A program made the position numbers and the translations under genes. This document shows, one piece after another, positions 5,478 through 28,757 of a DNA stretch of 64,000 nucleotides; within the stretch, counting starts at the first letter, position 1, and each line of letters starts with the position of its first letter. The notes beneath the pieces are model-generated. The model saw only the letters and a program-made list of their open reading frames with translations. It was not told the origin of the DNA and ran no database searches. Source of the DNA: Bacilli bacterium (GTDB lineage Bacteria > Bacillota_I > Bacilli_A > ML615J-28 > CAG-698); the NCBI GenBank assembly GCA_050174575.1, contig JBFXJT010000007.1, positions 6,648-70,647 of the forward strand, written 5' to 3'.

Positions 5478-7885
5478 TTTTTAAAAGACCTTAAATGCCA
5501 AATATTTTTTACATATTCATCAATACTTCGATCCGCAGAAAAGATACCTGCATTTGCAATATTGACCAAAGCCATTTGTTGCCATAATCGACGGTTTTTA
5601 TAGACTTGATCTAAATAATGATATTCCTTCATGTAGGAGTCAAAATCTGCTAAACACATATAAGGATCGGAAACAGGGAAATTATTTAATAAATAACGAG
5701 TAATGTTGTCAAAAGTCTTTCCATTGAAGCCACGGTTAAGTCGATTGATGACTTTTTTTATTAATGGATTGTTTTCATAATACATTGAGGGATTATATCC
5801 TTTTTTCCAAAGATTATTAACTTCTTCGGCGCTCATCCCAAATAAGAAAATATTATCTTTACCAACTGCTTCCGTAATTTCTACATTGGCTCCATCAAAA
5901 GTACCGAATGTTAAAGCACCATTAATCATGAATTTCATATTTCCCGTTCCACTAGCTTCTTTGCCAGCTAACGATATTTGTTCACTAATATCGCTAGCAG
6001 GTATAATTTTTTCAGCCATGGTAACATTGTAATTTTCAACAAAAACAACATTTAACTTCTCACGAATCAGTTGATTTTTATTAATGTCTTGAGAAATTGC
6101 ACAGATTAACTCGATAATTTCTTTCGCAACAAAATATCCCGGTGCAGCTTTTGCACCAAAAATATAAGTTTGTGGAGTAACATCTGCGTGAGGGTTTTCT
6201 TCTAATTCGATTAATAAAGCAACAATTTTAAGTGCATTTAACAATTGTCTTTTATATTCATGGAGACGTTTTATTTGCACATCAAATCTTGTTTTCGGAT
6301 TGATATTGATGCCTGTTTGTTTAAACAAATATTTCGCAAATTCAACTTTATTGTAGTTTTTTATCAATTCAAGTTGTTTTAATGTCTCATCATCTTCTTT
6401 AAAAGTTAATAACTGACGAAGTTCACTTGCATCGGTTAAATAGCCTTTTCCGATTGTTCGGTCCAACAATTCAACAAGTTTTGGGTTTGCTTGATAAAGC
6501 CAGCGGCGGTAAGCAATTCCATTGGTCACATTGGTAAATTTTTCTGGCCAAATTTGTGCAAAACCTTTAAATAAGTCATTTTTAATAATATCACTGTGTA
6601 ATTTGGAAACACCGTTAACTTTATGAGAAGCAATGACTGATAAATTAGCCATTCTTATTTGGCCTTGATGGATAATTGCTAAGTTGGCGATTTGTTGTTC
6701 GGACAATTGCCACTTTTCGCATGTCTTCACAAAAAGATTATTTATTTGCTTTAAGATAATATAAATCCTTGGCAATAATTTTTGAATTAATTCTTCGGAC
6801 CATTTTTCTAGTGCTTCTGCCATGACGGTATGATTGGTATAGCTGATGGTTGTTTGCACGATTCCCCAACTTTCTTCAAAACTTAAATCATATTCATCAA
6901 TTAAAATACGCATTAATTCCGGAATACATAAAGCTGGATGAGTATCGTTGATGTGAATAGCCACATACTTAGGAAGACTATGGATATCGCCATAATAACG
7001 AAGATGATCGGCAATAATGTTTTGCATTGAAGCACTTACTAAAAAATACTGTTGTTTTACACGGAGAGCTTTACCTTCATAATGATCATCCGAAGGATAA
7101 AGTACTTTAGATATTAAATCAGCTTCATTGTATTCTTTCATGGCTTCCATATAATCGCCTTGGGAAAACAATTTTAAATTGAAATCTTGAATATTTCGAC
7201 TACGCCATAATCGAAGGACACTGATGGCTTCACTATTAGCACCCGAAACCATCATATCGTAAGGAACAGCTTCAATCGCTTTATAGTTTAGGTAATCATA
7301 TATGATTTTATCGCCAACATGTTTTTCGATTACTTCACCATTAAACTTAACTTGGTAAACTTTGTCTCCGCGAAGCGTTAACCAAACTTCACCACCTGGT
7401 AACCAAACATCCGGTAATTCTGTTTGCCAACCATTGACTATTTTTTGTTTAAACAAACCATATTCATAACGGATGGAAAACCCCATGGCTGGATAGGCTT
7501 GTGAAGCTAAAGCGTCTAAGTAACAAGCGCCTAATCGCCCTAATCCACCATTGCCTAAACCGGCATCCGGTTCATGCTCATATAAATCTTCCAAAGTAAA
7601 CCCAATGCTCTCAAGGATGCTAGAAAACTCGTTAACTAATCCAAGATTATATAAATTATTTTTAAAAGAACGACCCATGAGAAATTCCATGCATAGATAA
7701 TAAACACGTTTCCCTTGGTTTTCTTTTACAATATTATTATAAACCTTGCGTTTTTTGCGAAGAATATCATTGATAGTTACCGCTGAAGCTTTATATAATT
7801 GTTCAATATTGGCATCAGCAAGGGCAACTCCGTACATTTTGGATAAATTGTCTTCAATGATATCTCTTAATTCCATTTTATTCAT
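5474..7885 (-). CDS. glgP: glycogen/maltodextrin phosphorylase
   Basis: 803 aa. Carries the PLP-lysine signature EASGTGNMKFMINGA and shows full-length alpha-glucan phosphorylase similarity. Confidence 0.95.
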   Translation of the reverse strand: MNKMELRDIIEDNLSKMYGVALADANIEQLYKASAVTINDILRKKRKVYNNIVKENQGKRVYYLCMEFLMGRSFKNNLYNLGLVNEFSSILESIGFTLEDLYEHEPDAGLGNGGLGRLGACYLDALASQAYPAMGFSIRYEYGLFKQKIVNGWQTELPDVWLPGGEVWLTLRGDKVYQVKFNGEVIEKHVGDKIIYDYLNYKAIEAVPYDMMVSGANSEAISVLRLWRSRNIQDFNLKLFSQGDYMEAMKEYNEADLISKVLYPSDDHYEGKALRVKQQYFLVSASMQNIIADHLRYYGDIHSLPKYVAIHINDTHPALCIPELMRILIDEYDLSFEESWGIVQTTISYTNHTVMAEALEKWSEELIQKLLPRIYIILKQINNLFVKTCEKWQLSEQQIANLAIIHQGQIRMANLSVIASHKVNGVSKLHSDIIKNDLFKGFAQIWPEKFTNVTNGIAYRRWLYQANPKLVELLDRTIGKGYLTDASELRQLLTFKEDDETLKQLELIKNYNKVEFAKYLFKQTGININPKTRFDVQIKRLHEYKRQLLNALKIVALLIELEENPHADVTPQTYIFGAKAAPGYFVAKEIIELICAISQDINKNQLIREKLNVVFVENYNVTMAEKIIPASDISEQISLAGKEASGTGNMKFMINGALTFGTFDGANVEITEAVGKDNIFLFGMSAEEVNNLWKKGYNPSMYYENNPLIKKVINRLNRGFNGKTFDNITRYLLNNFPVSDPYMCLADFDSYMKEYHYLDQVYKNRRLWQQMALVNIANAGIFSADRSIDEYVKNIWHLRSFKK

Positions 7886-11752: not shown

Positions 11753-13435
11753 TCACTTTCTAATTTTTATATGGTCTACTAAATTGTCATGAAAAACATA
11801 CTTATTGTCAATTGGCATATCACCCCATCGACTTATACACTGATCATAAATTTCTTCATAAACGTAAATCGACAAATCTTCATTTAATTTTACATCAATT
11901 TTTTGTTGTTCATTCAAAATATTGGAAATATAAATAATAAAATTTCCGGAAAAAAGTCTTACTATTTCGCCTTGTCTTAAATCATAATAAACATGAACTA
12001 AGTTGTGGCACTGGATAAAAGCTCCTGTTTCAACGGATTTAATCGTTGAAGAAAGGTATATTGTCTCTAAATCAAAACAATTTGCGAAAGCGGAAGCTTT
12101 TATTGTTTCACAACCTTCACCAAAAACAATTTCCAATAGACAATCTACATTGTCAAAAGCTCCAGTACTGATCTCCTTTGATGAAATGGTTAACTTATTA
12201 ATTGATGCATAATTAAAAGTTTTTGTTAGAACGACTTTTGCAGCAATATTTGCTTGATTTATTTTTGCATTAAAAAAGGCAAATTCAGAAATAGTATCAA
12301 CATGATTCCCGATAATCAAATTATCAAACGTTCGGCCAGCACATGAATATTCGCCAATTTTGTAAAAAACTTGAAAATCAGTTATGTCTGCATTACTTAG
12401 AATTAAATGATTTTGATTGTTTTCATTTACTACCAAAGAACCTTCTATTACATTATAAATGCTTTCATTACTAACTGTCATATTTTTTAGAGGGCAGCCA
12501 ATAAAGGCTTCTGCATTAACAAGAAGATTAGTTCCAAAAAAAACATTATTTAAATTAGAACAATTGAAAAAGGCATTTCTACCAAAAACGATATTTTGGT
12601 TGGGGAAGTTAATTTCTAAAAGATTAATACAGTTACTAAAGGCATTATCACCTATTTCTTTCATATTTGAAGTAAAATCAATTTTCGTTAATCCTGAATT
12701 TTCAAAAGCTTGGCTATTGATTATTTCAAGTGTTTCAGGAAAATTGATACTCGTTAATGAAGTACATCCAAAAAAGCAATTCCTACCAATTTCAGTTAAT
12801 TGTAAGGGAAGAGTAACGTTTGTTAACTGTAAACAATCATAGAATAAGTAGTCAGGAATAGTTGTGAAATTGTTTAAAAAAGTTACAGATGATATATCCG
12901 TGCTAGCGAAAGAAGAATCGGAAACTTCTACATCTTCTAGAACAATATTGCCTGATAATTTTGTACTCTGATATGCTCCAATCCCAATAAACTTAATATT
13001 TTCTGGGAGATTAATGACCGCTTCATTGTCATAAAACGCTTCTTGGCCTATATATTCAACACTATCAGCAATATTTACATTAAGCAGACCACTTTCAAAA
13101 AAAGCTTGATCTTCAATGATTTTTAGTCCCTCTTCGATAGTAAGGGATTCAATCGGTAAATTAACATCAGCCCCCCAGATACCATGATTCATCTTAAAAG
13201 CTTCACTTTTGATGGTAGAGACTTGTTTATTATTATGATAGGCAGGGATAAGGATATCTTTTACATAAAGCCCCGAAAATCCAGTCACTGCATAAGTATC
13301 ATCATCTAGGAGTTCAAACTCTAAATAATCATGGGGATTGGTACTTTTACTATAGCGCCCACCACATGCTGTCAACATTGTCAACAAAAAAAATATACTA
13401 ATAAAAAATGTAAAAAATAAAGTGACTTTCTTCAT
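11753..13435 (-). CDS. BspA-type leucine-rich-repeat surface lipoprotein
   Basis: 560 aa. Signal peptide with lipobox LLTMLTAC-GG. Many approx 23-aa repeats of the form I(G/P)xxAFxxCxxLxxIxhPxxL, e.g. IGRNCFFGCTSLTSINFPETLEIINSQAFENSGLTKIDF. Confidence 0.75.
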   Translation of the reverse strand: MKKVTLFFTFFISIFFLLTMLTACGGRYSKSTNPHDYLEFELLDDDTYAVTGFSGLYVKDILIPAYHNNKQVSTIKSEAFKMNHGIWGADVNLPIESLTIEEGLKIIEDQAFFESGLLNVNIADSVEYIGQEAFYDNEAVINLPENIKFIGIGAYQSTKLSGNIVLEDVEVSDSSFASTDISSVTFLNNFTTIPDYLFYDCLQLTNVTLPLQLTEIGRNCFFGCTSLTSINFPETLEIINSQAFENSGLTKIDFTSNMKEIGDNAFSNCINLLEINFPNQNIVFGRNAFFNCSNLNNVFFGTNLLVNAEAFIGCPLKNMTVSNESIYNVIEGSLVVNENNQNHLILSNADITDFQVFYKIGEYSCAGRTFDNLIIGNHVDTISEFAFFNAKINQANIAAKVVLTKTFNYASINKLTISSKEISTGAFDNVDCLLEIVFGEGCETIKASAFANCFDLETIYLSSTIKSVETGAFIQCHNLVHVYYDLRQGEIVRLFSGNFIIYISNILNEQQKIDVKLNEDLSIYVYEEIYDQCISRWGDMPIDNKYVFHDNLVDHIKIRK

Positions 13436-13518
13436 TAAAAATAAACTCCAATACTTTGAGAAATTTTTATACTTTCGATTTTTATATCATAATTGTTTTT
13501 AATCCATTTTATTTTTTG

Positions 13519-13556
13519 AAAAAAAGCTTTAATACAAATTAATTTTGCATTAAAGC
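13519..13556 (-). terminator. hairpin plus T-run after tRNA-Val
   Basis: Minus strand reads GCTTTAAT-(15 nt loop)-ATTAAAGC followed by TTTTTTTC. Confidence 0.5.
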
Positions 13557-13569
13557 GTTTGTCTCTAAA

Positions 13570-13644
13570 TGGTGGAATCAGAGGGGTTTGAACCCACGAC
13601 CCCTTGCACGTCAAGCAAGTGCTCTCCCGCTGAGCTATGATTCC
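13570..13644 (-). tRNA. tRNA-Val (anticodon GAC)
   Basis: Minus strand reads GGAATCATAGCTCAGCGGGAGAGCACTTGCTTGACGTGCAAGGGGTCGTGGGTTCAAACCCCTCTGATTCCACCA. Acceptor GGAATCA/TGATTCC, anticodon loop TTGACGT, T-loop GGTTCAAAC, encoded CCA. Confidence 0.9.
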
Positions 13645-13654
13645 AAGCAAAGTA

Positions 13655-13683
13655 ATTATACTAAAATGAAAAGCAAATTGCAA
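13655..13683 (-). promoter_or_regulatory. promoter for tRNA-Val
   Basis: On the minus strand: TTGCAA (13678-13683), 17 nt, TATAAT (13655-13660). It ends about 10 nt upstream of the tRNA 5' end. Confidence 0.6.
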
Positions 13684-13731: not shown

Positions 13732-14469
13732 CTATTCATTCAATTGCTTTCTTCTAATTAATTCTAAAACAGCAAAAGATGCTACATCTTCGGCATATTT
13801 CTTTTGACCGAATCCAGCATCATACCCCAATTCTTTTGCAAGTTCATGAGTTATTCTGGCTCCTCCGGCAATCAAAAGGACTTGATCTCTAATCCCTTCC
13901 GCTTCTAACATTTCCACAAGTTCTAATAAATTTTTCAAATGAACGTCTTTTTGTGTTACTGTTTGGCTAACAAGCAAAACATCCGCTTTAACTTCTTTAG
14001 CTTTTTTCACAAAAGCTTCATTGGAAACTTGACTACCTAAATTGTAAGTTTTGATGTTTTTATAGCGTTCTAAACCATAATGACCAGCAAAACCCTTCAT
14101 GTTCATAATGGCATCGATCCCAACAGTATGGGCATCAGTTCCTGTAGAAGCACCAATAAAAACAATTTCTCTTTTCAATTCGTTTTCAATCATTATTTCT
14201 ATTTCTTCTTTTGTATAAGTCGGAGTTGTGACATCACTAACATGAATAAGATTAGGATCAACAGAAAAAGGAATGGATCCATAAATAACATAAAAGCTAA
14301 AATTATCGCCCAAGGTCTCAGCTGCAACAACTTGAGGATCAATCAAACCCATTTGTTTTGCAAGAGACTTAGCGCATTCAATTCCTAGCGTGTTATTAAC
14401 AAGCGGTAAAGAAAAACTTATTTGGACTTTACCATCATTTGATGTATCGCCATAAGGTTTAATCAACAT
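13732..14469 (-). CDS. kamE: lysine 5,6-aminomutase beta (B12-binding) subunit
   Basis: 245 aa. Cobalamin-binding Rossmann domain with the base-off His motif STGTDAHTVGIDAIM and ...LLIAGGA. Overlaps kamD by 11 nt. Confidence 0.85.
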   Translation of the reverse strand: MLIKPYGDTSNDGKVQISFSLPLVNNTLGIECAKSLAKQMGLIDPQVVAAETLGDNFSFYVIYGSIPFSVDPNLIHVSDVTTPTYTKEEIEIMIENELKREIVFIGASTGTDAHTVGIDAIMNMKGFAGHYGLERYKNIKTYNLGSQVSNEAFVKKAKEVKADVLLVSQTVTQKDVHLKNLLELVEMLEAEGIRDQVLLIAGGARITHELAKELGYDAGFGQKKYAEDVASFAVLELIRRKQLNE

Positions 14470-16015
14470 GTTCTTCCTCCTCTAAAGCATCCATAACAAC
14501 ATTAACATAATTGTGGTGCTTTAAAAAAACGCCTTCTAATCCTTTTCCTCCAGTAAAACTGCGTTTGATGTCCGCAAATACGCCGTTTTCTAAAGCTTTG
14601 AATAGCGACATTTGTTCGATTTCTTGCAATAATTGATGAGCTTCGTTCAAAACATTTTTAGCTCTTTTTGCCATGATTCCATTTTGTTTATATTCAATTT
14701 CATCACCGAATGACTTCATCGAATTAGCAATCAATTTTGCATTTTCAATTGCTAAGTAGCGATCAGACATAAATGGTGTATGAATGGCTTCCGTCATCAT
14801 CCCCAACAGATGAATTGATTGATTAGAGATGATTGTTGCCATATTGAACATTGTGTTTTGCATATAAGCTCGGAAAATATTCCCAGTTATATGTTTTGTT
14901 GGTGGCATATATTTTAAAGGAGCCTCAGGGAAAATTTCTCTAGCCATTTGAGCTTGGGCTAATTCATACAAAAAACTATTTTCAATTGTCGGATCAATTT
15001 CAAAAGCATGGCCTAAACCCATTAAATTTTTTGGGAGGTGAGCTTTTATGGCGAATTGTTCATTAATAAATTGTGAAGCTAAAACGGTATGAGCTTGCGA
15101 ATAGGCATCAGCTGTTGTTAAGTAATTATCTTCACCGGTATTAATGATGATTCCCGCTAAAGCATTAATCCTTCTTGAAAAATTTTGATCAATTAGCGTT
15201 CTTTGCATATTAATATCACGGAAAATTATGCCATAAAGACTATCATTGAGTAAAACGTCGAGCCTTTCCAAAGCAGCCATTGCGGCGATTTCCGGCATAC
15301 ATAAACCCGATGCATAATTGACTAATTTTATATACCTTTTTTCCTGATGAGAAACCTGATCAAGTGCTTCACGCATAATGCGAAAGTTTTCTTGGGTGGC
15401 ATAAGTTCCGCCAAATCCCTCAGTTGTCGCCCCAAAAGGAACAAAATCTAATAAAGACTGCCCTGTTGACCTAATAACGGCAATAATATCAGCACCAGCC
15501 TTGGCAGCAGCTTTAGCTTGGATGACATCTTCATAGATGTTACCCGTTGCTACAATAACATAAATTTCAGTTGCTTTAGGTGGATATAGAGTAAACAAAG
15601 CTGCTCTTTTTTGTTTGTTTTGTTTAATTTTTTCTATTTGTTTTTGAACATATGGCTGTAAACTTAATTTAATATTTTTAGGAGATGCTAACGGAAAATC
15701 CGTTAATTTCATATCACCATTTAGGACGCTAGCCACCAAATCATTTAATGTTTTTTTAGTAGCAATCAAGGCACTCCCTAGATAACTGGAAACACCCAAA
15801 GTCAAATCGCCACTTTCTTTAACTTGGTTGACTAGTACATTAGGGATTGGCACGTCGAAGTCATCGACGCCATCAATTCCTAATAATCGAACAACAGTCC
15901 GCTCAATGGCAACGGTCGTGCGTTCGTTGATAAAGTTCTGAACATCATCAGCAATATGCAAGGCACATTGGCGACATTCATTGATAATATTTTGATCTAA
16001 ATGGAATTTATTCAT
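14459..16015 (-). CDS. kamD: lysine 5,6-aminomutase alpha (large) subunit
   Basis: 518 aa. Size, position immediately upstream of kamE and the operon context with kamA/kdd/kce support the call. Sequence-level recognition by eye is weaker. Confidence 0.8.
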   Translation of the reverse strand: MNKFHLDQNIINECRQCALHIADDVQNFINERTTVAIERTVVRLLGIDGVDDFDVPIPNVLVNQVKESGDLTLGVSSYLGSALIATKKTLNDLVASVLNGDMKLTDFPLASPKNIKLSLQPYVQKQIEKIKQNKQKRAALFTLYPPKATEIYVIVATGNIYEDVIQAKAAAKAGADIIAVIRSTGQSLLDFVPFGATTEGFGGTYATQENFRIMREALDQVSHQEKRYIKLVNYASGLCMPEIAAMAALERLDVLLNDSLYGIIFRDINMQRTLIDQNFSRRINALAGIIINTGEDNYLTTADAYSQAHTVLASQFINEQFAIKAHLPKNLMGLGHAFEIDPTIENSFLYELAQAQMAREIFPEAPLKYMPPTKHITGNIFRAYMQNTMFNMATIISNQSIHLLGMMTEAIHTPFMSDRYLAIENAKLIANSMKSFGDEIEYKQNGIMAKRAKNVLNEAHQLLQEIEQMSLFKALENGVFADIKRSFTGGKGLEGVFLKHHNYVNVVMDALEEEEHVD

Positions 16016-16016
16016 A

Positions 16017-17015
16017 TTAATTACTCTTTTCTAAAACATCGTATATCGGTAAAGTTATTCTATCTTCTATTTTATTACGAAAATTTGCTAAAGAAATGAC
16101 ATTTCCAGTAGGAGAGAATGGATTAAAAGTTAAGGCAACAAGATTTATTGGTTGAAGTACAAAAATTTTTTGTTTTAAAAGCAACAAATGTTTTAACAAA
16201 ATATCATCAGCTAATAAATGTGTAGGACTATTAACGATTAAATCACAATTTAAGTTTTGACGATTGTCAATTAAGGCTTTTAAAAATGATGGACTAACCG
16301 CTTTAGGAACATATACATAACGAATATTTTGCTTAATTTGGGAAATTATGTCTGCTCCACAATCTAGTGTTGTCGTTCTTTTTAAGAATGACATTTTATT
16401 TTGATCATCAATTAAAACAATGTCATCCCATTCTTTTAAGTCAAGTGTCCCATTATATTTTGGCAAATTGAATAATTTGATGGTGTTTAAAGTATGTAGA
16501 ACAATTTTGTCAAGTTGATAGGAAAAACTAGAACCAACACAAAAAATCGTGGCATCACAAATTTGTGCAAGGGTTGTTCGGGAAAAAGCTCCATCAATCA
16601 ATATTTTTTGACATTCATATTCTTTTAATTTATCAATAATCATCCGCATTGATTGAATTGTCGATGGTCCCCCAACAAGACAGTTGCCGGCTTTGGTAAT
16701 TTTGATTAACACAATGGGACCTAATGCGGTCACAATCTTTGTTTCTTCGATAATGTCATATTGGGCTTCACATTCATCCAAACAATTTTTAGCGGTTGCA
16801 ACAATGGTGTTTGTGGAAGTAAAAATCCTTGGTTTCGGCAAGAAAGTGATTTGATCAATTTTTTCGCCATCAAGGCCAATAGAAGAAATACCCGTTGTAA
16901 TCGATTGATATTGTGTTAACAAAAAATTTAAAACTGTTGTTTTCCCTGCATTTTTTGCATTGCCAACTGTACAAATTACTTGATAATCTTCAAGTAATGA
17001 AGTTAATGCTTTAAT
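16017..17015 (-). CDS. P-loop NTPase between kamA and kamDE (putative aminomutase-associated/reactivase-like ATPase); start codon unresolved
   Basis: The track ORF starts at TTG 16922. The same frame stays open up to 17078 and encodes a Walker A motif (YQVICTVGNAKNAGKTTVLNF) upstream of that TTG. There is no ATG, GTG, TTG or CTG in that stretch. ATT at 17015 is the best candidate start. Confidence 0.55.
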   Translation of the reverse strand: MKALTSLLEDYQVICTVGNAKNAGKTTVLNFLLTQYQSITTGISSIGLDGEKIDQITFLPKPRIFTSTNTIVATAKNCLDECEAQYDIIEETKIVTALGPIVLIKITKAGNCLVGGPSTIQSMRMIIDKLKEYECQKILIDGAFSRTTLAQICDATIFCVGSSFSYQLDKIVLHTLNTIKLFNLPKYNGTLDLKEWDDIVLIDDQNKMSFLKRTTTLDCGADIISQIKQNIRYVYVPKAVSPSFLKALIDNRQNLNCDLIVNSPTHLLADDILLKHLLLLKQKIFVLQPINLVALTFNPFSPTGNVISLANFRNKIEDRITLPIYDVLEKSN

Positions 17016-18259
17016 GCTCGTTCTCGTCTTTCTAAATGTTTGGGTTCGATTGCTCTTTGTTTGCCGGCAAGTAATCCACTAACACCTTCAGCTTCTTTAC
17101 TAGTACTGCAATTTGGATTTTCATGATAATCAGTTGGTTCATTGTAAGTGGTAATAACACCTTCATAATTTCTCAAAACAACTTTTCCCGGTGCTTGTGA
17201 AATTACATAGTTAGGCATAACGGGGATTTTACCTCCACCACCAGGAGCATCAACGACAAATGTCGGAACGCATAACCCACTAATGTGACCACGTAAACCT
17301 TCGATAATTTCAATACCTTTACTAATTGGTGTTCGGAAATGCTCAATACCAAGAGAAAGATCACATTGGTATAAATAGTATGGGCGAACACGCATTTGCA
17401 CTAAGCACGTGCATAATTTTCGCATTGTATCGACACAGTCATTAACGCCTCTTAAAAGAACACTTTGATTTCCCAAAGGAATTCCGGCATCAGCCATTTT
17501 CGCAATAGCCTTGGCACTTTCTTCAGTTATTTCATCATAATGGTTAAAATGAGTATTTACCCAAATAGGATGATATTTTTTTAACATTGAAACAAGTTCG
17601 TCCGTAATTCTTTGAGGCATAACAACGGGTGTCCTTGTGCCAATGCGGATAATTTCTACATGGTCAATTGCTCTTAAACGAGAAATGATTGATTCCAATT
17701 TCGCATCACTCATTAATAAAGCATCACCACCGGATAACAAGACATCTCGAACAGCAGGTGTTTTGCGAATATACTCAATTGCTTGTTCAATGCGATCACT
17801 TGGTAAATCATGGTCTGTTTGTCCTGCAAAACGTCTTCTTGTACAATGACGGCAATACATACTACACATATCCGTAATCAAAAACAAAACACGGTCAGGA
17901 TAACGATGTGTTAATCCAGGTACAGGTGAATCCTTATCTTCATCAAGCGGATCAACAAGATCGTTCTTGCCAATGATCATTTCATTAATGCTCGGGATAG
18001 CCTGTTTTCTAATTGGGCAATCAACGTTGTCTGGATCGATTAAACACAAAAAATAAGGTGTAATGGCCATCCGAAAACGTGATAGTACTTCAGTAATCTG
18101 TTGTTCTTCTTCGCTCGTTAAATTGATATATTTTTTAAGTTGCAAGACATCGGTAATCCGGTTTCGAACCTGCCAATGCCAGTCTTGCCAATCTGTTGAA
18201 GAGACATTAGGAAAATACTTTTGTTTTCTTTCTAAATATCTTTCATTTACTATTAACAT
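17003..18259 (-). CDS. kamA: L-lysine 2,3-aminomutase (radical SAM)
   Basis: 418 aa. Radical-SAM cluster motif CSMYCRHCTRR and a KamA-type N-terminal region (WQDWHWQVRNRI). AAGGAG RBS. Confidence 0.95.
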   Translation of the reverse strand: MLIVNERYLERKQKYFPNVSSTDWQDWHWQVRNRITDVLQLKKYINLTSEEEQQITEVLSRFRMAITPYFLCLIDPDNVDCPIRKQAIPSINEMIIGKNDLVDPLDEDKDSPVPGLTHRYPDRVLFLITDMCSMYCRHCTRRRFAGQTDHDLPSDRIEQAIEYIRKTPAVRDVLLSGGDALLMSDAKLESIISRLRAIDHVEIIRIGTRTPVVMPQRITDELVSMLKKYHPIWVNTHFNHYDEITEESAKAIAKMADAGIPLGNQSVLLRGVNDCVDTMRKLCTCLVQMRVRPYYLYQCDLSLGIEHFRTPISKGIEIIEGLRGHISGLCVPTFVVDAPGGGGKIPVMPNYVISQAPGKVVLRNYEGVITTYNEPTDYHENPNCSTSKEAEGVSGLLAGKQRAIEPKHLERRERALKH

Positions 18260-18262
18260 AAT

Positions 18263-19303
18263 TTACTCCTTCGGTTGATATCTTTTTACAAATAGATCAT
18301 AAAGCGGTTTTGATTCCCTTAAAAGGCTCAAGGTTAAATCGGCGTGTCCCGGAGTATAACCGTTACCGATAATCATGGTAGCTTCACTGGCAATGCCTTC
18401 AGCACCTAAAGCAGCTTTTGTGAAAGAAGTTGCCATACTGAAGAAATAAACAATACCGCTTGGTTTGGTTGCTAAAATCGATGTCATTTCTGTATTTGGA
18501 ACATTAACGACATTAATTGTGACATCAACTTGTTGATTATTATTGACTCGCATGATTTCTTGATAGACTGCCATCGGATCTCTAGCATCTGCTACAATGA
18601 TTTCGTCACAGACTCCGAGTGATTGCAAATCTTCAAGTTTATTGGTATTACTTATTAGCGCTATGATTTTGCCATTTGGACCGGCGTTCTTGTGAGCTTG
18701 ATAGCAGCATAATACACCACTTTTACCAGCTGCCCCTAGCACCAAAACAGTATTGTTAGGTTTAACCAATTTTTCAACTTGTGCAGGTGCACCAGCAACA
18801 TCTAAAGCAGATAATACTAAATGTTCACTTAAGTCATTGGGGATTTTCGCATAAATGCCCGTAGCAAATAAGATTGCTTCTGCTTCAACATCAACTTGAT
18901 CTTTATGCAAATGAATTTGTTTGATCGCTTTTATTTTTAATGGTGTTAGTGATAAAGAAACTAAAGTCACAATTTTATCACCAATTTTTAAATCGCATTT
19001 TAAGTCTTTTCCTATTTGTTTAATAACACCTAAAAGCATTCCCCCACTACCTGTTACAGGGTTTTGCATTTTTCCGCGTTTATTGACAATATCCATAATC
19101 ATCGTTTTCATGGCTTCCACATCACTATTAGTTGCTTGTTTAATTTGGGTAAAAGATGCGGAATCGATATTTAATGTTTTTACATCAATTAAAATTTCAT
19201 TGTCTTGGCAAATCATCGTATTATCTAATTGATCTGCAGCTTGAGGGAGAACACCTACCGGACTAATGACACGGTGAGTTCCATAAGGGCATGGCTTTTT
19301 CAT
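18263..19303 (-). CDS. kdd: L-erythro-3,5-diaminohexanoate dehydrogenase
   Basis: 346 aa. Rossmann motif VLVLGAAGKSG. Sits between kce and kamA as in known lysine fermentation clusters. Confidence 0.8.
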   Translation of the reverse strand: MKKPCPYGTHRVISPVGVLPQAADQLDNTMICQDNEILIDVKTLNIDSASFTQIKQATNSDVEAMKTMIMDIVNKRGKMQNPVTGSGGMLLGVIKQIGKDLKCDLKIGDKIVTLVSLSLTPLKIKAIKQIHLHKDQVDVEAEAILFATGIYAKIPNDLSEHLVLSALDVAGAPAQVEKLVKPNNTVLVLGAAGKSGVLCCYQAHKNAGPNGKIIALISNTNKLEDLQSLGVCDEIIVADARDPMAVYQEIMRVNNNQQVDVTINVVNVPNTEMTSILATKPSGIVYFFSMATSFTKAALGAEGIASEATMIIGNGYTPGHADLTLSLLRESKPLYDLFVKRYQPKE

Positions 19304-20127
19304 ATTTTCTTCTCCATTCTTAATATTTTTCTAGTTTCTTCGGGATTGGCAATTTCCCGATTGTATTTTTTTGCAATTTGAACGACTTTCGCTACTAAAG
19401 CGGCATTCGATGGAGCTAATACTCCTTTGTCAATGTAAATATTGTCTTCTAAACCAACGCGAACATGACCACCATGCATAATGGAAAGTTCTGCAAGGGA
19501 AAATTCAAAACGACCGATTCCGGCAACACTATATGTCGCATCATTTGGAATGCTGTCCTTTAAAAACAGAAAATCCCGTTCTTCTCCAGTCATTCCACCG
19601 TTAACTCCTAAAACAAAACTAAAATGGTAGGGTGGATTAATAAAGCCTTTTTTCGCAAGTCTTTGTATCATATCAATATGACCTTTTTCAAAGCATTCAA
19701 GTTCTTTATAAATATGACGACTTTCCAAAACATTGGCAAAATACTTAATATCGTTTTCTGTATTAACAAAAATATCATCACCACCAAAGTTTAATGTTCC
19801 ACAATCAAGCGTCGCCATTTCAGGATTTAGAGTAACCGGACCTAAACGCTCATCACGGCTCATGCCAACGGCTCCTCCAGTTGATACTTGAACGATGACA
19901 TCGGGACATTTAGCTTTGATTGCTGTAATGATTTCTTTAAAACGTTTGGCATCTTGCGTCGGCGTTCCATCATCAAAACGGGCATGCAAGTGAATGATTG
20001 ATGCTTTCGCCAAATAAGCCTGATAAGCACTTTCAGCCATCTCTGAAACAGTATAGGGAACATTGGGATTATGGTCTTTAGTAACTTCCGCACCAGAAAT
20101 AGCACAAGTAATGATTAATTTTTCCAT
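19300..20127 (-). CDS. kce: 3-keto-5-aminohexanoate cleavage enzyme (BKACE/DUF849 family)
   Basis: Start moved to ATG 20127 ([25 protein letters not shown] upstream). The track start at 20160 would be an 11-aa extension inside kal. TIM-barrel BKACE features ...[11 protein letters not shown]... Confidence 0.85.
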
Positions 20128-20507
20128 GTTTTCCTCTGAAGAGCTTTTGGTACAACACAAGTACCCTTTGCAGAAGCAACCAAAATTGGTTCATCTAAAA
20201 AATCAGCTGCTGAAGGAACAATATTTGGTTTAGCTTCGATTACTTTGTAACATGCAAAAGTCATTTTTCTTGAAGTGTTTCCCACTTCAACAATTTCACC
20301 ATGCACTTCCAAAAAGTCACCAGCATAAACCGGAGCCAAAAAATCTACTTGCTCGTAAGCCCGAAATAATCCTTCATCTCCATCATGGCGAATGAGCAAT
20401 TCTGTCGCAACATCGCCAAATAAAGCTAAGATTCGAGCTCCATCCACAAGATTTCCTCCATAATGGGCATCGCTTAAGGACATTCGTAAACGGATTATTG
20501 TTTTCAT
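20115..20507 (-). CDS. kal: 3-aminobutyryl-CoA ammonia-lyase (hot-dog fold)
   Basis: 130 aa small hot-dog protein between the CoA-transferase genes and kce, matching the size and position of Kal. Confidence 0.7.
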
Positions 20508-21807: not shown

Positions 21808-22224
21808 TTACTTAGGGGGCATAATAGTCGCTTCACCGACTATCACCACTTCGTTTTTGTCGTTTTTTGCAACGCAATCAAAAACAACACGATTTTTTTC
21901 CATAATGATTTCTTTTACAGTCACAAAAGCCGTTATTGTATCATTCAAATAAACTGGCTTAATAAACTTTAAACTTTGGAAAGTATAGATACTTCCTAAA
22001 CCAGGTAATTCAGTACCTAAGATGGCACTAAAAAGAGAGCCAACAAGCATACCATGAACTATCCTCGTTTTAAAAATCGTTGTTTTTGCATAATCTTCAT
22101 TTACATGAGCGGGGTTAAAGTCACCAGAAACTGAGGCAAAATTGTTAACATCAGTTTCTGTAAAACTCTTTGTTATTGAACTTGTTTGTCCAATAAACAA
22201 TTCGTTAATTGTCAATTTTTTCAA
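21808..22224 (-). CDS. MaoC-like (R)-specific enoyl-CoA hydratase/dehydratase
   Basis: Hydratase-2 motif FASVSGDFNPAHV. Start reassigned to in-frame TTG 22224 (MKKLTINELFIGQ), 7 nt after AAAGGAG. The track's 39-aa N-terminal extension runs through the riboswitch terminator. Confidence 0.8.
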   Translation of the reverse strand: MKKLTINELFIGQTSSITKSFTETDVNNFASVSGDFNPAHVNEDYAKTTIFKTRIVHGMLVGSLFSAILGTELPGLGSIYTFQSLKFIKPVYLNDTITAFVTVKEIIMEKNRVVFDCVAKNDKNEVVIVGEATIMPPK

Positions 22225-22241
22225 GAAATAACTCCTTTCAT

Positions 22242-22273
22242 AAAAAAAGCTGTTGTCTTTTAAAGACAACAGC
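22242..22273 (-). terminator. riboswitch-controlled intrinsic terminator
   Basis: Minus strand reads GCTGTTGTCT-TTAAA-AGACAACAGC, a perfect 10-bp stem, followed by TTTTTTT. Confidence 0.85.
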
Positions 22274-22435
22274 GCTCCATTTCCCAAATGGCAGTGGATA
22301 AGGCATTCCTTGTCCACCAAGACTTTAATGAATGAACTCATTAAATCTTTCGGCGATATTTCCCTTTATTTGTCACATTGGGAGTTCATTCCCTTAGCAT
22401 TGACAAATTACCCTAAATAACGCACCTCTGTGTAT
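22266..22435 (-). promoter_or_regulatory. lysine riboswitch (L-box) aptamer
   Basis: Minus-strand RNA: ATACACAG AGGTGCG...AGGGTA ATTTGTCA...TGACAAAT AAAGGGAAATATCGCCGAAAG ATTTAATGA...TCATTAAAGTCT TGGTGGACAAGGAATGCCTTATCCAC TGCCATTTGGGAAATGG AGCG CTGTTGT. Conserved L-box blocks and five-helix layout recognised by eye. Confidence 0.85.
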
Positions 22436-22446
22436 TAACTAATACT

Positions 22447-22475
22447 ATTATACCGAAACAAAAATGGCTTGTCAA
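22447..22475 (-). promoter_or_regulatory. consensus sigma-A promoter of the lysine operon
   Basis: On the minus strand: TTGACA (22470-22475), 17 nt, TATAAT (22447-22452). Confidence 0.75.
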
Positions 22476-26072: not shown

Positions 26073-28757
26073 ATGAGGCAATCAATAAAACTTATTTTTA
26101 TCCTTAATTTGTTTTTTATCCTTGCTTTGGGAGCAATCTATCCAAACCCTTCTTCGAAAAATTACGAAATCAATTCATCTAATAATCTCCACCTTTTAAT
26201 GGAAATTGATGAAAATGAGGCAAATGAAATTGCAAAAACATATAATCTAGATTTTCTTGATTATTCAAATTATGGTTATGCTACTTTCGTTGCCCAAGAT
26301 GATGAACAATATAAATCATTACTAAATGATACCGATCTATCCTTTATTCCTAATAACCTGTCTATTACTGATGCTAGACCACCAATAAATCAGGAAGACT
26401 TAACAAAATTATATGCTTTATCCTTAATTGATACCTATGATGCTTGGCAATTGACAATGGGAAGCAGTAGTGTTTTAGTGGCTATCATCGATACTGGAAT
26501 AGATATTTATCATAGTGAATTTACAGGGAAGATTTCTTCACTATCTTACAATTCGAAAACAAAGACAGTCGGTTTAACACAAGTCATTGATGATCAAGGT
26601 CATGGAACAATGGTAGCTGGTGTAATCGCCGCAACAAAAGGCAATAACATTGGGATTGCTGGTGTTGCACCTTCCTCTTCATTATTGGTTATCAAAGCAA
26701 ATGAGCCAAACGAAGGATCTTTTCTTGATAGTTCCGTCATTGAAGGTATTTATTATGCTGCTGACCATGGTGCTGATGTCATTAACATGAGTTTAGGAAG
26801 TCCTTATGCCAACCCATTAACAAAGACAGCATTAGAATATGCACGAAGTAAAGGCGCACTCATTGTTGCTGCTGCTGGTAATGATAGTGTTAGTACCCCT
26901 TACTATCCTGCAAGTTTTGACACAACAATTTCTGTATCTGCTGTTGATCAAACACAATTATTAGCCACGTATTCAAATTTCGGTTCAAATATTAGTGTTG
27001 CCGCTCCTGGAACAAACATTTATACAACAGTTAAAGGAAATACCTACGGCTATGGGTCCGGTACTTCTTTGGCTGCCCCACAAGTATCGGGTGTTTTAGC
27101 TTTAATGCTTGCATATTTAAATATGTCCGATGAGGAAATTTTGTCAAGAATTTTACTAACAGCAACTGATTTGGGAAATTTAGGCAAAGATGATTCATAT
27201 GGTTATGGACTTGTTAATAGTTATGATGCCTTAGTTCATCCTTTAGTTACCGTTTCGTTTGAAACTTTCGGTGGAACAGTTCTAGAGCCAATTCAAGTAG
27301 CGGCTAATCGTCCATTTATATGCACTCAAATTCCTGAAAAAGAATTATCCATTTTCGAAGGATGGTACAAGGATAGTTTATTGATGACACCTTGGGTTAT
27401 GGGAACAAGTGTAACCAGCACAAATATTACTTTGTATGCGAAATATACTAAAAGTTCATATTTAGTGTCTTTTGTAACATCTGGTTCTTATGTAGAAGAT
27501 ATGATTGTCGCAGCAAATGGTTCTTTTACCCTTCCAACTACATCCCTTGATCAATATCAATTTATTGGATGGTTTTTAGACAGTCAATATTTAGAACCAT
27601 ATGTTTCTGGACCAGTTACCGCAGATTTGACGCTGTATGCAAAATTTGAAAAACTTGATACTTATTATAATATTTTCTTTGTAACACAGGGATCGGCGAT
27701 TGATCCGATTCAAGTAAAAGAAGGCGAATCTGTTTCACCACCACCTTCCTTGTTAACTGGTTATACTTTTCATGGATGGTATTTAGACAGTAATTATTCC
27801 ATTCCCTATCAAAATGAACCTGTTACTTCATCGATGACACTGTATGCTTTGTTTGATATCAATGATTATGATATTTCCTATTTTATTGATAACGAACTTT
27901 ATGATACCATCACTTTGCCGTATAATAGTGAAATTCCTAATCTTGAACCTGCCAAAGAAGGATATACTTTTAGTGGTTGGTATTTAGATGATAGTTTCAC
28001 AACCCCACTTGATGATGGTGGTTTAGAAAACAATCTGTCCTTATTTGGTTTTTTCACAATCCAAACATTTGAAGTAATTTACTTAGTAGATGATACAATC
28101 ATCAGTCAACAAACCGTCAATTATGGGGAAAATGCTACTCCGCCTTCATCTTATACAAAACCAGATTCAATAAGCTTTTTCTATGAATTTATCGGTTGGA
28201 GTGAAGAAGCATTAAACGTTACCTCTAATTTAACAATAATAGCAATATTTAATAAAACATTCAAACCAACAAGCATTGCTTTACAACCGGGAATTGATAC
28301 AATCTATCAAAATGAAGAATGGATTGATGCCGGGTTAATCATTTCTAATTCAAATATTACTTATACAACTCAAAGTCAAGTCGATACTCATTTTATTGGT
28401 CGTTACCTTGTTTTATACTTTATATATGAAGAAGCAAATTTGGTGTACGAAAAAACAAGAGTGGTATCTGTTATAGAAAAACCACCTGTTGTCCAAATAA
28501 CTCTTAATGATGATGTAACAACAATTTTTGAAGGAAATGAATACCTAGATGCCGGAGCAAATACAAATGTTGGAACAATTACAACAAAAGGAACCGTAGA
28601 TTACAATCAGGAAGGCACTTATGTAATTGTTTATGAAGTTGTTGTCCAAAATATTACCTATCAAAAACATAAATATGTCTATGTTGTGAAAGAAGTTGAA
28701 CCAACTTCAACCGTAGCTTTTATTGTAAACGATAAAAAAAGGTGGTATGAAGTATGA
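26073..28757 (+). CDS. secreted subtilisin-like (S8) serine protease with C-terminal repeat and Ig-like domains
   Basis: 894 aa with a signal peptide. Catalytic triad motifs VAIIDTGID, HGTMVAGVIAA and GTSLAAPQVSG. Five approx 70-aa repeats with (F/Y)xGW(Y/F)xD, of the Listeria-Bacteroides/InlB-B type. Two DUF5011-like Ig modules (GIDTIYQNEEWIDAG, TIFEGNEYLDAG). Confidence 0.85.
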   Translation: MRQSIKLIFILNLFFILALGAIYPNPSSKNYEINSSNNLHLLMEIDENEANEIAKTYNLDFLDYSNYGYATFVAQDDEQYKSLLNDTDLSFIPNNLSITDARPPINQEDLTKLYALSLIDTYDAWQLTMGSSSVLVAIIDTGIDIYHSEFTGKISSLSYNSKTKTVGLTQVIDDQGHGTMVAGVIAATKGNNIGIAGVAPSSSLLVIKANEPNEGSFLDSSVIEGIYYAADHGADVINMSLGSPYANPLTKTALEYARSKGALIVAAAGNDSVSTPYYPASFDTTISVSAVDQTQLLATYSNFGSNISVAAPGTNIYTTVKGNTYGYGSGTSLAAPQVSGVLALMLAYLNMSDEEILSRILLTATDLGNLGKDDSYGYGLVNSYDALVHPLVTVSFETFGGTVLEPIQVAANRPFICTQIPEKELSIFEGWYKDSLLMTPWVMGTSVTSTNITLYAKYTKSSYLVSFVTSGSYVEDMIVAANGSFTLPTTSLDQYQFIGWFLDSQYLEPYVSGPVTADLTLYAKFEKLDTYYNIFFVTQGSAIDPIQVKEGESVSPPPSLLTGYTFHGWYLDSNYSIPYQNEPVTSSMTLYALFDINDYDISYFIDNELYDTITLPYNSEIPNLEPAKEGYTFSGWYLDDSFTTPLDDGGLENNLSLFGFFTIQTFEVIYLVDDTIISQQTVNYGENATPPSSYTKPDSISFFYEFIGWSEEALNVTSNLTIIAIFNKTFKPTSIALQPGIDTIYQNEEWIDAGLIISNSNITYTTQSQVDTHFIGRYLVLYFIYEEANLVYEKTRVVSVIEKPPVVQITLNDDVTTIFEGNEYLDAGANTNVGTITTKGTVDYNQEGTYVIVYEVVVQNITYQKHKYVYVVKEVEPTSTVAFIVNDKKRWYEV

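Follow-up and report, generated by a model that had tools for sequence, protein, structure and literature searches.

An AUU codon inside the end of kamA is the probable start of kamB in a lysine-catabolic operon of a Bacilli bacterium

The 64,000-nucleotide (nt) stretch of Bacilli bacterium DNA analyzed here (positions 6,648 to 70,647 of contig JBFXJT010000007.1, assembly GCA_050174575.1; hereafter the window) carries on its minus strand an operon in the order kal-kce-kdd-kamA-kamB-kamD-kamE, in which the flanking genes were each assigned by their own equivalog. This report concerns the P-loop gene between kamA and kamD and the codon at which its translation begins. The gene is kamB, as judged from its sequence and setting. 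Its 332-residue conceptual protein matches the NCBIfam equivalog NF052386, named "lysine 5,6-aminomutase reactivase subunit KamB," with 289.5 bits (cut-off 210) and an E value of 2.8e-86. All of the profile is aligned (positions 1-326 of 326 against KamB residues 14-327), and, like members of that family, the gene lies between kamA and kamD. We consider it quite likely that KamB is a protein of 332 residues (17015-16017) that initiates at an AUU codon at 17015, read as Met, within the tail of kamA and behind a Shine-Dalgarno (SD)-like tract. Initiation at this codon is probably coupled to translation of kamA and probably proceeds at a low level. The features of the locus are collected in Table 1.

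Table 1. Features of the kamA-kamB-kamDE region (positions are those of the window)
Feature	Position	Strand	Basis or remark
kamA, lysine 2,3-aminomutase, 418 residues	17003..18259	-	Open reading frame; TIGR03820, 611 bits against a cut-off of 525
kamA stop TAA	17003..17005	-	10 nt downstream of the A of ATT 17015
kamB full-length coding sequence, proposed, 332 residues plus stop	16017..17015	-	NF052386; comparative start-site analysis; AlphaFold
kamB ATT, proposed non-canonical start	17013..17015	-	16 codons before the Val of VGN (codon -16)
SD-like purine tract TAGAAAGACGAGAA	17021..17034	-	Within the kamA ERRER codons
P-loop VGNAKNAGKTT and end of strand beta-1	16935..16967	-	Translation of the kamB frame
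ATT at codon -3, judged an internal Ile of strand beta-1	16974..16976	-	NCBIfam profile position 1 aligns here
TTG, start used by the open reading frame list and the public annotation	16920..16922	-	Downstream of the P-loop
9-bp hairpin AUUACUUGA / UCAAGUAAU, just past the kamA stop	16975..16998	-	Local fold
kamD, ATG 16015	14459..16015	-	NF052384, 838 bits
kamE	13732..14469	-	NF052385, 369 bits

On the minus strand, the kamB frame follows a stop codon at 17081-17079 and is open from 17078 to its own stop at 16019-16017. An initial annotation, made from the letters of the window, had reported that this frame contains no canonical start before TTG 16922, and a direct reading of the 52 codons from 17078 to 16923 bears this out: none is an in-frame ATG, GTG, TTG or CTG. 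The conceptual translation given there (...SIKALTSLLEDYQVICTVGNAKNAGKTTVLNF) is also the one that we obtain. In-frame ATT codons in this stretch lie at 17075, 17015 and 16976. TTG 16922 is used as the start both by the mechanical list of open reading frames and by the public annotation of the same contig (P0001, "MAG: Bacilli bacterium"), whose 301-residue product is 100% identical and begins MLTQYQS. The initial annotation had further described a Walker A motif upstream of this TTG. A P-loop is indeed encoded there (16967-16935) and would be lost with a TTG start; the one detail that differs is the form of the motif, which is G-x5-GKT and not of textbook length. By a rough estimate, 52 AT-rich codons would contain no start by chance about 5% of the time, which is not improbable taken alone. 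The absence is meaningful because the same absence recurs in 30 of 68 unique related loci.

Related loci were collected by a genome scan and a metagenome scan, which together gave 89 loci (80 of at least 525 metagenome matches were kept), and the census of starts covers the 68 unique loci whose upstream in-frame stop could be resolved. Codons are numbered such that the Val of VGN is codon 0. In the 30 start-less loci there is no ATG, GTG or TTG from the upstream in-frame stop down to codon -3. These loci come from the assemblies of many projects, genomes and metagenomes alike, and their G+C content runs from 29% to 67%. In several loci the in-frame stop lies just 8-10 codons upstream of the AUU or AUC (AUY) codon discussed below, and the intervening codons are AAG, GGA, ACG and the like; a start further upstream of AUY is therefore impossible there. 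ATT 17075 was likewise ruled out as a start, as close relatives carry in-frame stops downstream of that site.

ATT 17015 is singled out by comparison within the clade to which the window belongs, which comprises 32 unique loci (the AUY clade; our codon table covers 31 of them). The initial annotation had listed an AUU start among its possibilities, beside termination-reinitiation coupled to kamA and an error in the sequence, with ATT 17015 as one candidate, and the comparison supports that candidate. Codon -16, which is ATT 17015 in the window, encodes Ile in 32 of 32 loci (of the 31 tabulated, 17 have ATT and 14 have ATC), and it aligns with the GTG or ATG of a sister clade. No other position upstream of the P-loop glycine is invariant; Ile, Leu and Val replace one another freely across the clade at the remaining hydrophobic positions (-13, -10, -9, -4, -3, -1 and 0). 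The geometry does not vary either. The first base of the kamA stop stands 38 nt ahead of codon 0, the register of kamA is +1 to that of kamB, and the spacing from AUY to the kamA stop is 10 nt in all 31 class-A loci tabulated.

The overlap with kamA allows the same position to be read from the other frame. The last four kamA codons and the stop overlap the start of kamB, and the KamA C terminus (...EPKHLERRERALKH, followed by the stop) is conserved across related loci. The kamA residue whose codon supplies the first base of AUY varies widely (A, T, S, R, Q, I, K, V or P), yet the last base of that codon is A in all 31 loci, while A is otherwise found at the third position of only 4-9% of kamA codons in some of those genomes. 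A naive product of these frequencies is about 1e-19, a figure that ignores shared ancestry. The kamA residue that follows is Leu or Ser, as ATT or ATC dictates. A varied residue with an invariant final A, followed by Leu or Ser, therefore points to a constraint on the kamB triplet and not on KamA. The overlap also limits which codons can stand at this site. Bases 2 and 3 of codon -16 also open a kamA codon, so that any NTG at codon -16 places TGA in kamA, and ATA followed by A or G places TAA or TAG in it. Among ATN codons only ATT and ATC fit, because the others close the kamA frame. The kamA overlap itself thus explains why only AUU or AUC is usable as a kamB start at this position.

Relatives outside and at the edges of the AUY clade carry recognizable starts at or near this site. 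In the sister clade (about 20 loci), a GTG or ATG opens the sequence [V/M]-K-[K/N]-L-I-D, which, a three-residue indel further downstream aside, is clearly homologous by alignment to its counterpart in the AUY clade, I-K-[K/E]-L-[V/I]-D. A few derived loci within the AUY clade have, three codons downstream, an ATG (L030, L045 and L056), a TTG (L040) or an ATA (L006, L015 and L057), and these codons overlap the kamA stop as ATGA, TTGA or ATAA. Another clade, which we call "IILK," has the N terminus I-I-L-K-x-Y-I-E-P-Y-H-T-I-S-I-I-G-[TI]. No canonical start is present in 7 of its 10 loci (L037, L041, L054, L059, L064, L067 and L077); runs of ATA, ATC or ATT lie just past the kamA stop, with ATH where the relative L053 has GTG (GTG-TTG in that place). 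On alignment, a non-canonical start seems to have arisen here a second time, independently, and the tree suggests one ancient origin of AUY and one further origin.

If translation starts at ATT 17015, then the codons between it and the P-loop should behave as protein. Codons -12 to -1 lie beyond kamA, outside the overlap, and their pairwise differences at the first, second and third codon positions are 0.58, 0.34 and 0.68, which is the periodicity of coding DNA. The encoded residues keep a conserved amphipathic pattern. AlphaFold models KamB residues 1-10 as a short helix at a predicted local distance difference test score (pLDDT) of 87. Judged by alignment and by model, the segment upstream of the P-loop is coding. 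It includes the conceptual tryptic peptide ALTSLLEDYQVICTVGNAK, which is encoded upstream of ATT 16976.

The AUY codon of this clade is preceded by an SD-like sequence, AGAAGGGA, and relatives carry AGAAAGAAGGGA or AGAAAGAAGGAA 6-9 nt upstream of AUY. Pairing energies were computed against a generic Firmicutes-type 16S 3' tail. By this measure the relatives' duplexes reach -9 to -17 kcal/mol and their median rank falls in the top 2.8% of kamA positions; the duplex in the window has -7.2 kcal/mol and is in the top 3.4%. The tract also encodes a conserved KamA motif, ERRER, so its conservation is partly a matter of protein constraint. The choice of codons within the motif gives a second line of evidence. 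Two of the Arg codons in the tract are AGA or AGG even where AGR makes up 2-5 of about 30 kamA Arg codons, and the third Arg is CGN; relatives of high G+C content, too, use the rare AGA and AGG codons at the tract. This choice of Arg codons supports, independently of the protein sequence, selection on the SD-like tract.

A start that gene finders do not recognize would leave its mark on databases, and such a mark is apparent. Of 120 database homologues, 24 have no P-loop, and 19 begin inside the P-loop or within one residue of VGN, so that 43 of the 120 begin inside or after it. These truncated N termini appear to reflect the choice by gene callers of the first available GTG, TTG or ATG. The initial annotation had suggested that orthologues beginning at the equivalent of TTG 16922 and lacking a P-loop would speak against an upstream start; the 24 entries are of that description, but gene callers have cut them short just as they did the entry for this contig. 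The NF052386 profile, too, starts only at codon -3 and leaves out the first 13 residues of the proposed protein, and a family-wide misannotation of the KamB N terminus seems, from these alignments, to have been carried into the reference profile. KamB would thus be systematically misannotated, and the entry for this contig is without its nucleotide-binding site. The correct N terminus will be needed by anyone who expresses KamB to study the reactivation of lysine 5,6-aminomutase. One further argument from database entries, that N termini of the form M-K-x-L match the I-K-A-L of the window, was dropped as partly coincidental. In the example that we checked in DNA (P0034, which matches locus L026), the M-K-x-L start was called at a TTG, codon -13, and the relative is one of high G+C content.

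Several considerations weigh against initiation at AUU 17015. AUU is a very poor initiator in Escherichia coli reporters, in which AUU, AUC and AUA give about 0.02-3% of the activity of AUG (bioRxiv 10.1101/063800). The SD core of the window is weaker than that of all close relatives, as a kamA CGA codon replaces AGG to give AGAAAGACGAGA. AUY and the SD-like tract both lie inside the kamA coding sequence, and their conservation is partly owed to the KamA tail (LERRER). The loci are related to one another, so that locus counts are not counts of independent events, and it is conceivable that the invariant Ile has a structural role in a protein whose translation begins by another route. Finally, initiation at this codon is deduced from comparison. 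We weighed four other explanations.

The alternative that survives best, though we regard it as unlikely, is a start at ATT 16976 (codon -3), giving M-C-T-V-G-N-A-K..., by re-initiation of ribosomes that come off kamA at its stop, 27 nt upstream. Position 1 of the NCBIfam profile aligns to this Ile, many database homologues begin M-I-S-x-V-G-N, and 23 of 32 loci have Ile at codon -3. In the remaining 9 of 32, however, codon -3 is Val or Leu (I23, V6, L3), so it is not a conserved near-cognate codon, and no SD-like purine tract stands in front of it. The 12 codons upstream of it are conserved as protein, with codon periodicity, and AlphaFold models the corresponding residues confidently. As for the M-I-S N termini, they are probably what a gene caller would give from a GTG at the conserved Val of codon -4, and GTG does occur at codon -4 in several loci. 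The initial annotation had offered an ATT at about 16970 (ATT 16976) as its second candidate, and the coding, conserved and confidently modeled codons ahead of it lead us to set that candidate aside.

Very unlikely, in our judgment, is a programmed -1 frameshift at A_UUA_AAG (17016-17009) near the end of kamA, which would produce a KamA-KamB fusion and make a start codon for kamB unnecessary. Four features recommend it: kamB is read in the -1 frame with respect to kamA, in most loci the ATY is followed by A_AAG or A_AAA, kamA contains an SD-like tract ahead of the site, and in the window a 9-bp hairpin lies about 10 nt downstream of the slip site. The tract and the hairpin would assist the shift. 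A canonical X_XXY_YYZ heptamer, however, occurs in the permissible zone in just 5 of 37 loci and is absent from the window. The AAR codon is replaced by CAT, CAA, GAA, GGG or GCT in L026, L028, L033, L035, L023, L034, L021 and L051, which keep ATC. Nor is there a conserved downstream structure: folds of 46 nt have a mean z score of -0.75 across 33 loci, with 18% below -2. The hairpin of the window has a z score of -2.3 over 46 nt, but a 130-nt fold around the start has -1.0, which is not significant, and the hairpin is not conserved beyond the closest relatives. KamB is moreover free-standing in the sister clades and derived members, which have an ordinary ATG, GTG or TTG at or next to the homologous site, and locus L009 has kamB without an upstream kamA.

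That TTG 16922 is the true start, such that the product is a P-loop-less remnant of 301 residues or kamB is decaying in this genome, we hold to be highly improbable. It is the first canonical start and was chosen by both the ORF finder and the public annotation, and a weakened SD core before ATT 17015 would be in keeping with decay. The P-loop and the 16 codons that precede it are nevertheless intact and in frame, with all family-invariant residues present, and without strand beta-1, the P-loop and helix alpha-1 the predicted fold would be incomplete. The homologous codon is also not a conserved start in close relatives, where the sequence reads LNYLI, LNYLL or LNHLI. The chance that a sequencing or assembly error removed an ATG, a possibility raised in the initial annotation and allowed for here by the origin of the window in a metagenome-assembled genome, is negligible, because about 30 independent assemblies, made in different projects and with G+C contents of 29% to 67%, are start-less in the same way.

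An AUU start 10 nt before the kamA stop fits, as far as its geometry goes, translational coupling, and we propose the following scheme for initiation at AUU 17015. Ribosomes that terminate on kamA would supply much of the initiation on kamB, or dominate it, and the initiator tRNA would read AUU 17015 as Met. The weakness of the AUU codon would hold KamB far below KamA and KamDE in amount. The arrangement could have arisen from an ancestral ATGA overlap in which one substitution, G to T or G to C, abolished the kamA stop and made the kamB start AUY; the same change would extend KamA by three residues to the next stop. A stricter form of the scheme is possible but doubtful. In it, AUU or AUC would be usable solely by ribosomes that have just terminated on kamA, free 30S subunits with initiation factor 3 (IF3) would reject it, and KamB would be a fixed small fraction of KamA. 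If such obligate termination-reinitiation were true, kamA-kamB would be a natural, deeply conserved model of re-initiation at a non-canonical codon, and the arrangement would have been maintained across phyla by the geometry of the overlap, which leaves the kamA frame open with AUU or AUC only.

The textbook case of a conserved non-canonical start is infC, and to our knowledge bacterial gene families with a phylogenetically deep conserved start other than AUG, GUG or UUG are rare. Conserved AUU, AUC or AUA starts are described for infC and pcnB (bioRxiv 10.1101/063800), and the ATC start of Deinococcus dnaA was proven by an N-terminal peptide (PMC2830850). kamB resembles infC and pcnB in that a near-cognate AUU, AUC or AUA codon is conserved across taxa, is preceded by an SD sequence and is miscalled by gene finders (bioRxiv 10.1101/063800; PMC2830850). 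It differs from infC in that the AUU of infC is a sensor for the autoregulation of IF3, and no such logic is evident for kamB; in addition, the kamB codon sits within the tail of kamA, where the overlap forbids AUG, GUG, UUG and mostly AUA. The starts of infC and pcnB are proven, whereas that of kamB is proposed from comparison. The Deinococcus dnaA codon is likewise an ATC that is conserved among relatives, restores a conserved N terminus and was missed by annotation. Compared with that peptide-proven start, the evidence for kamB is comparative, but its codon is conserved over a much wider range of organisms. Coupled ATGA and TTGA overlaps are a further parallel, as the start lies in the last codons of the upstream gene, and derived kamB relatives have true ATGA, TTGA and ATAA overlaps. 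Unlike those, the main kamB clade has its start 10 nt before the stop and at a non-canonical codon. On this comparative evidence, kamB appears to be a new and unusually widely conserved case of a known class, initiation at AUU or AUC, and not a new mechanism. It would add an example from a metabolic operon to the conserved non-canonical starts.

The full-length protein that would start at ATT 17015 has an N-terminal strand, P-loop and helix in an AlphaFold model built from 36 homologues (pLDDT 92; predicted template modeling score 0.89). The textbook Walker A motif is G-x4-GK[ST], and the KamB P-loop, GNAKNAGKT (G-x5-GKT), is one residue longer. A search for G-x4-GK[ST] matched 0 of 120 KamB homologues. 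The P-loop residues G, N, K, N, A, G, K, T and T are invariant in 32 of 32 clade loci, and G18, K21, N22, G24, K25 and T26 are invariant in KamB alignment A1. A Pfam scan of the 332-residue protein returned no family, even at E <= 1, and a profile search of solved structures in the PDB returned only marginal matches (HflX, E 0.28; MobB, itself a SIMIBI-class P-loop protein, E 0.77). Foldseek comparison of the model with the PDB found nothing at E <= 1e-3. The best matches were weak and all of the SIMIBI class (E 6e-3 to 5e-2; template modeling scores of 0.2-0.3): Get3, ParA, MinD, SRP54/FtsY, HypB and MeaB/MMAA. Like these nucleoside triphosphatases, which include in MeaB/MMAA a G-protein chaperone of a B12 mutase, KamB has an N-terminal strand-P-loop-helix unit with GKTT. 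Unlike them, it has the longer P-loop, and the rest of its 332-residue fold is without a solved relative; the fold matches are weak.

A reactivase role for KamB is suggested by the curated name of its family together with its place in the operon. The initial annotation had guessed at an ATP-dependent aminomutase reactivase, in agreement with that name, which is a database name. The aminomutase in question, lysine 5,6-aminomutase, depends on B12. Lysine 5,6-aminomutase inactivates itself during turnover, and the enzyme of Clostridium sticklandii was first isolated with an auxiliary activating protein, E2 (PMC3958899). In lysine-fermentation clusters, a "hypothetical protein" and a MutS-family gene have been noted (PMC3149608). 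Beyond those cluster genes, we found no descriptive paper on KamB, KamC or an aminomutase reactivase. A KamC partner was not found among the 14 window proteins scanned, a scan that was not exhaustive.

The remaining junctions of the operon are also tight. The kamB TAA (16017-16019) and the kamD ATG (16013-16015) are separated by 1 nt, kamD and kamE overlap by 11 nt (14459-14469), and kdd shares 4 nt with kce (19300-19303); these junctions fit translational coupling along the whole operon. The order kamA-kamB-kamD is kept in related loci, with kamD directly after kamB in nearly all of them. Upstream of kal-kce-kdd lie two coenzyme A-transferase-like ORFs and then a MaoC-like gene. The kce ORF as listed (19300-20160, minus strand) begins at a TTG; the ATG at MEKLIITC is a likelier start by its alignment, because the NCBIfam KCE profile begins at residue 14.

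The leader of the operon (minus strand, 22249-22475) contains a promoter, a lysine riboswitch aptamer and a terminator, in that order. The promoter is a perfect sigma-70 sequence, TTGACA-17-TATAAT, at 22475-22447 on the minus strand; the aptamer (RF00168, 81 bits) spans 22438-22262, also on the minus strand; and an 11-bp terminator hairpin with a T-run lies at 22273-22249. Because the 5' arm of the terminator overlaps the 3' end of the aptamer, the geometry suggests an ON switch, in which binding of lysine would prevent termination. Such ON logic is expected for a lysine-catabolic operon and is the opposite of the usual OFF switches of biosynthesis. The MaoC-like dehydratase ORF as listed (177 residues, 21808-22341, minus strand) overlaps both the riboswitch and the terminator. 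The match to its family leaves out the first 38 residues, and its true start therefore lies further downstream.

Directly after kamE, a tRNA gene is found at 13573-13644 on the minus strand. An ORF of 82 residues (13435-13683) overlaps it, is without a family match and is probably spurious. Among the neighboring genes, 11753-13435 encodes a leucine-rich-repeat lipoprotein-like protein, judged from its translation alone, and 26073-28757 encodes a subtilisin/mycosin-like protease with Listeria-Bacteroides repeats. Both appear to be unrelated to the lysine operon.

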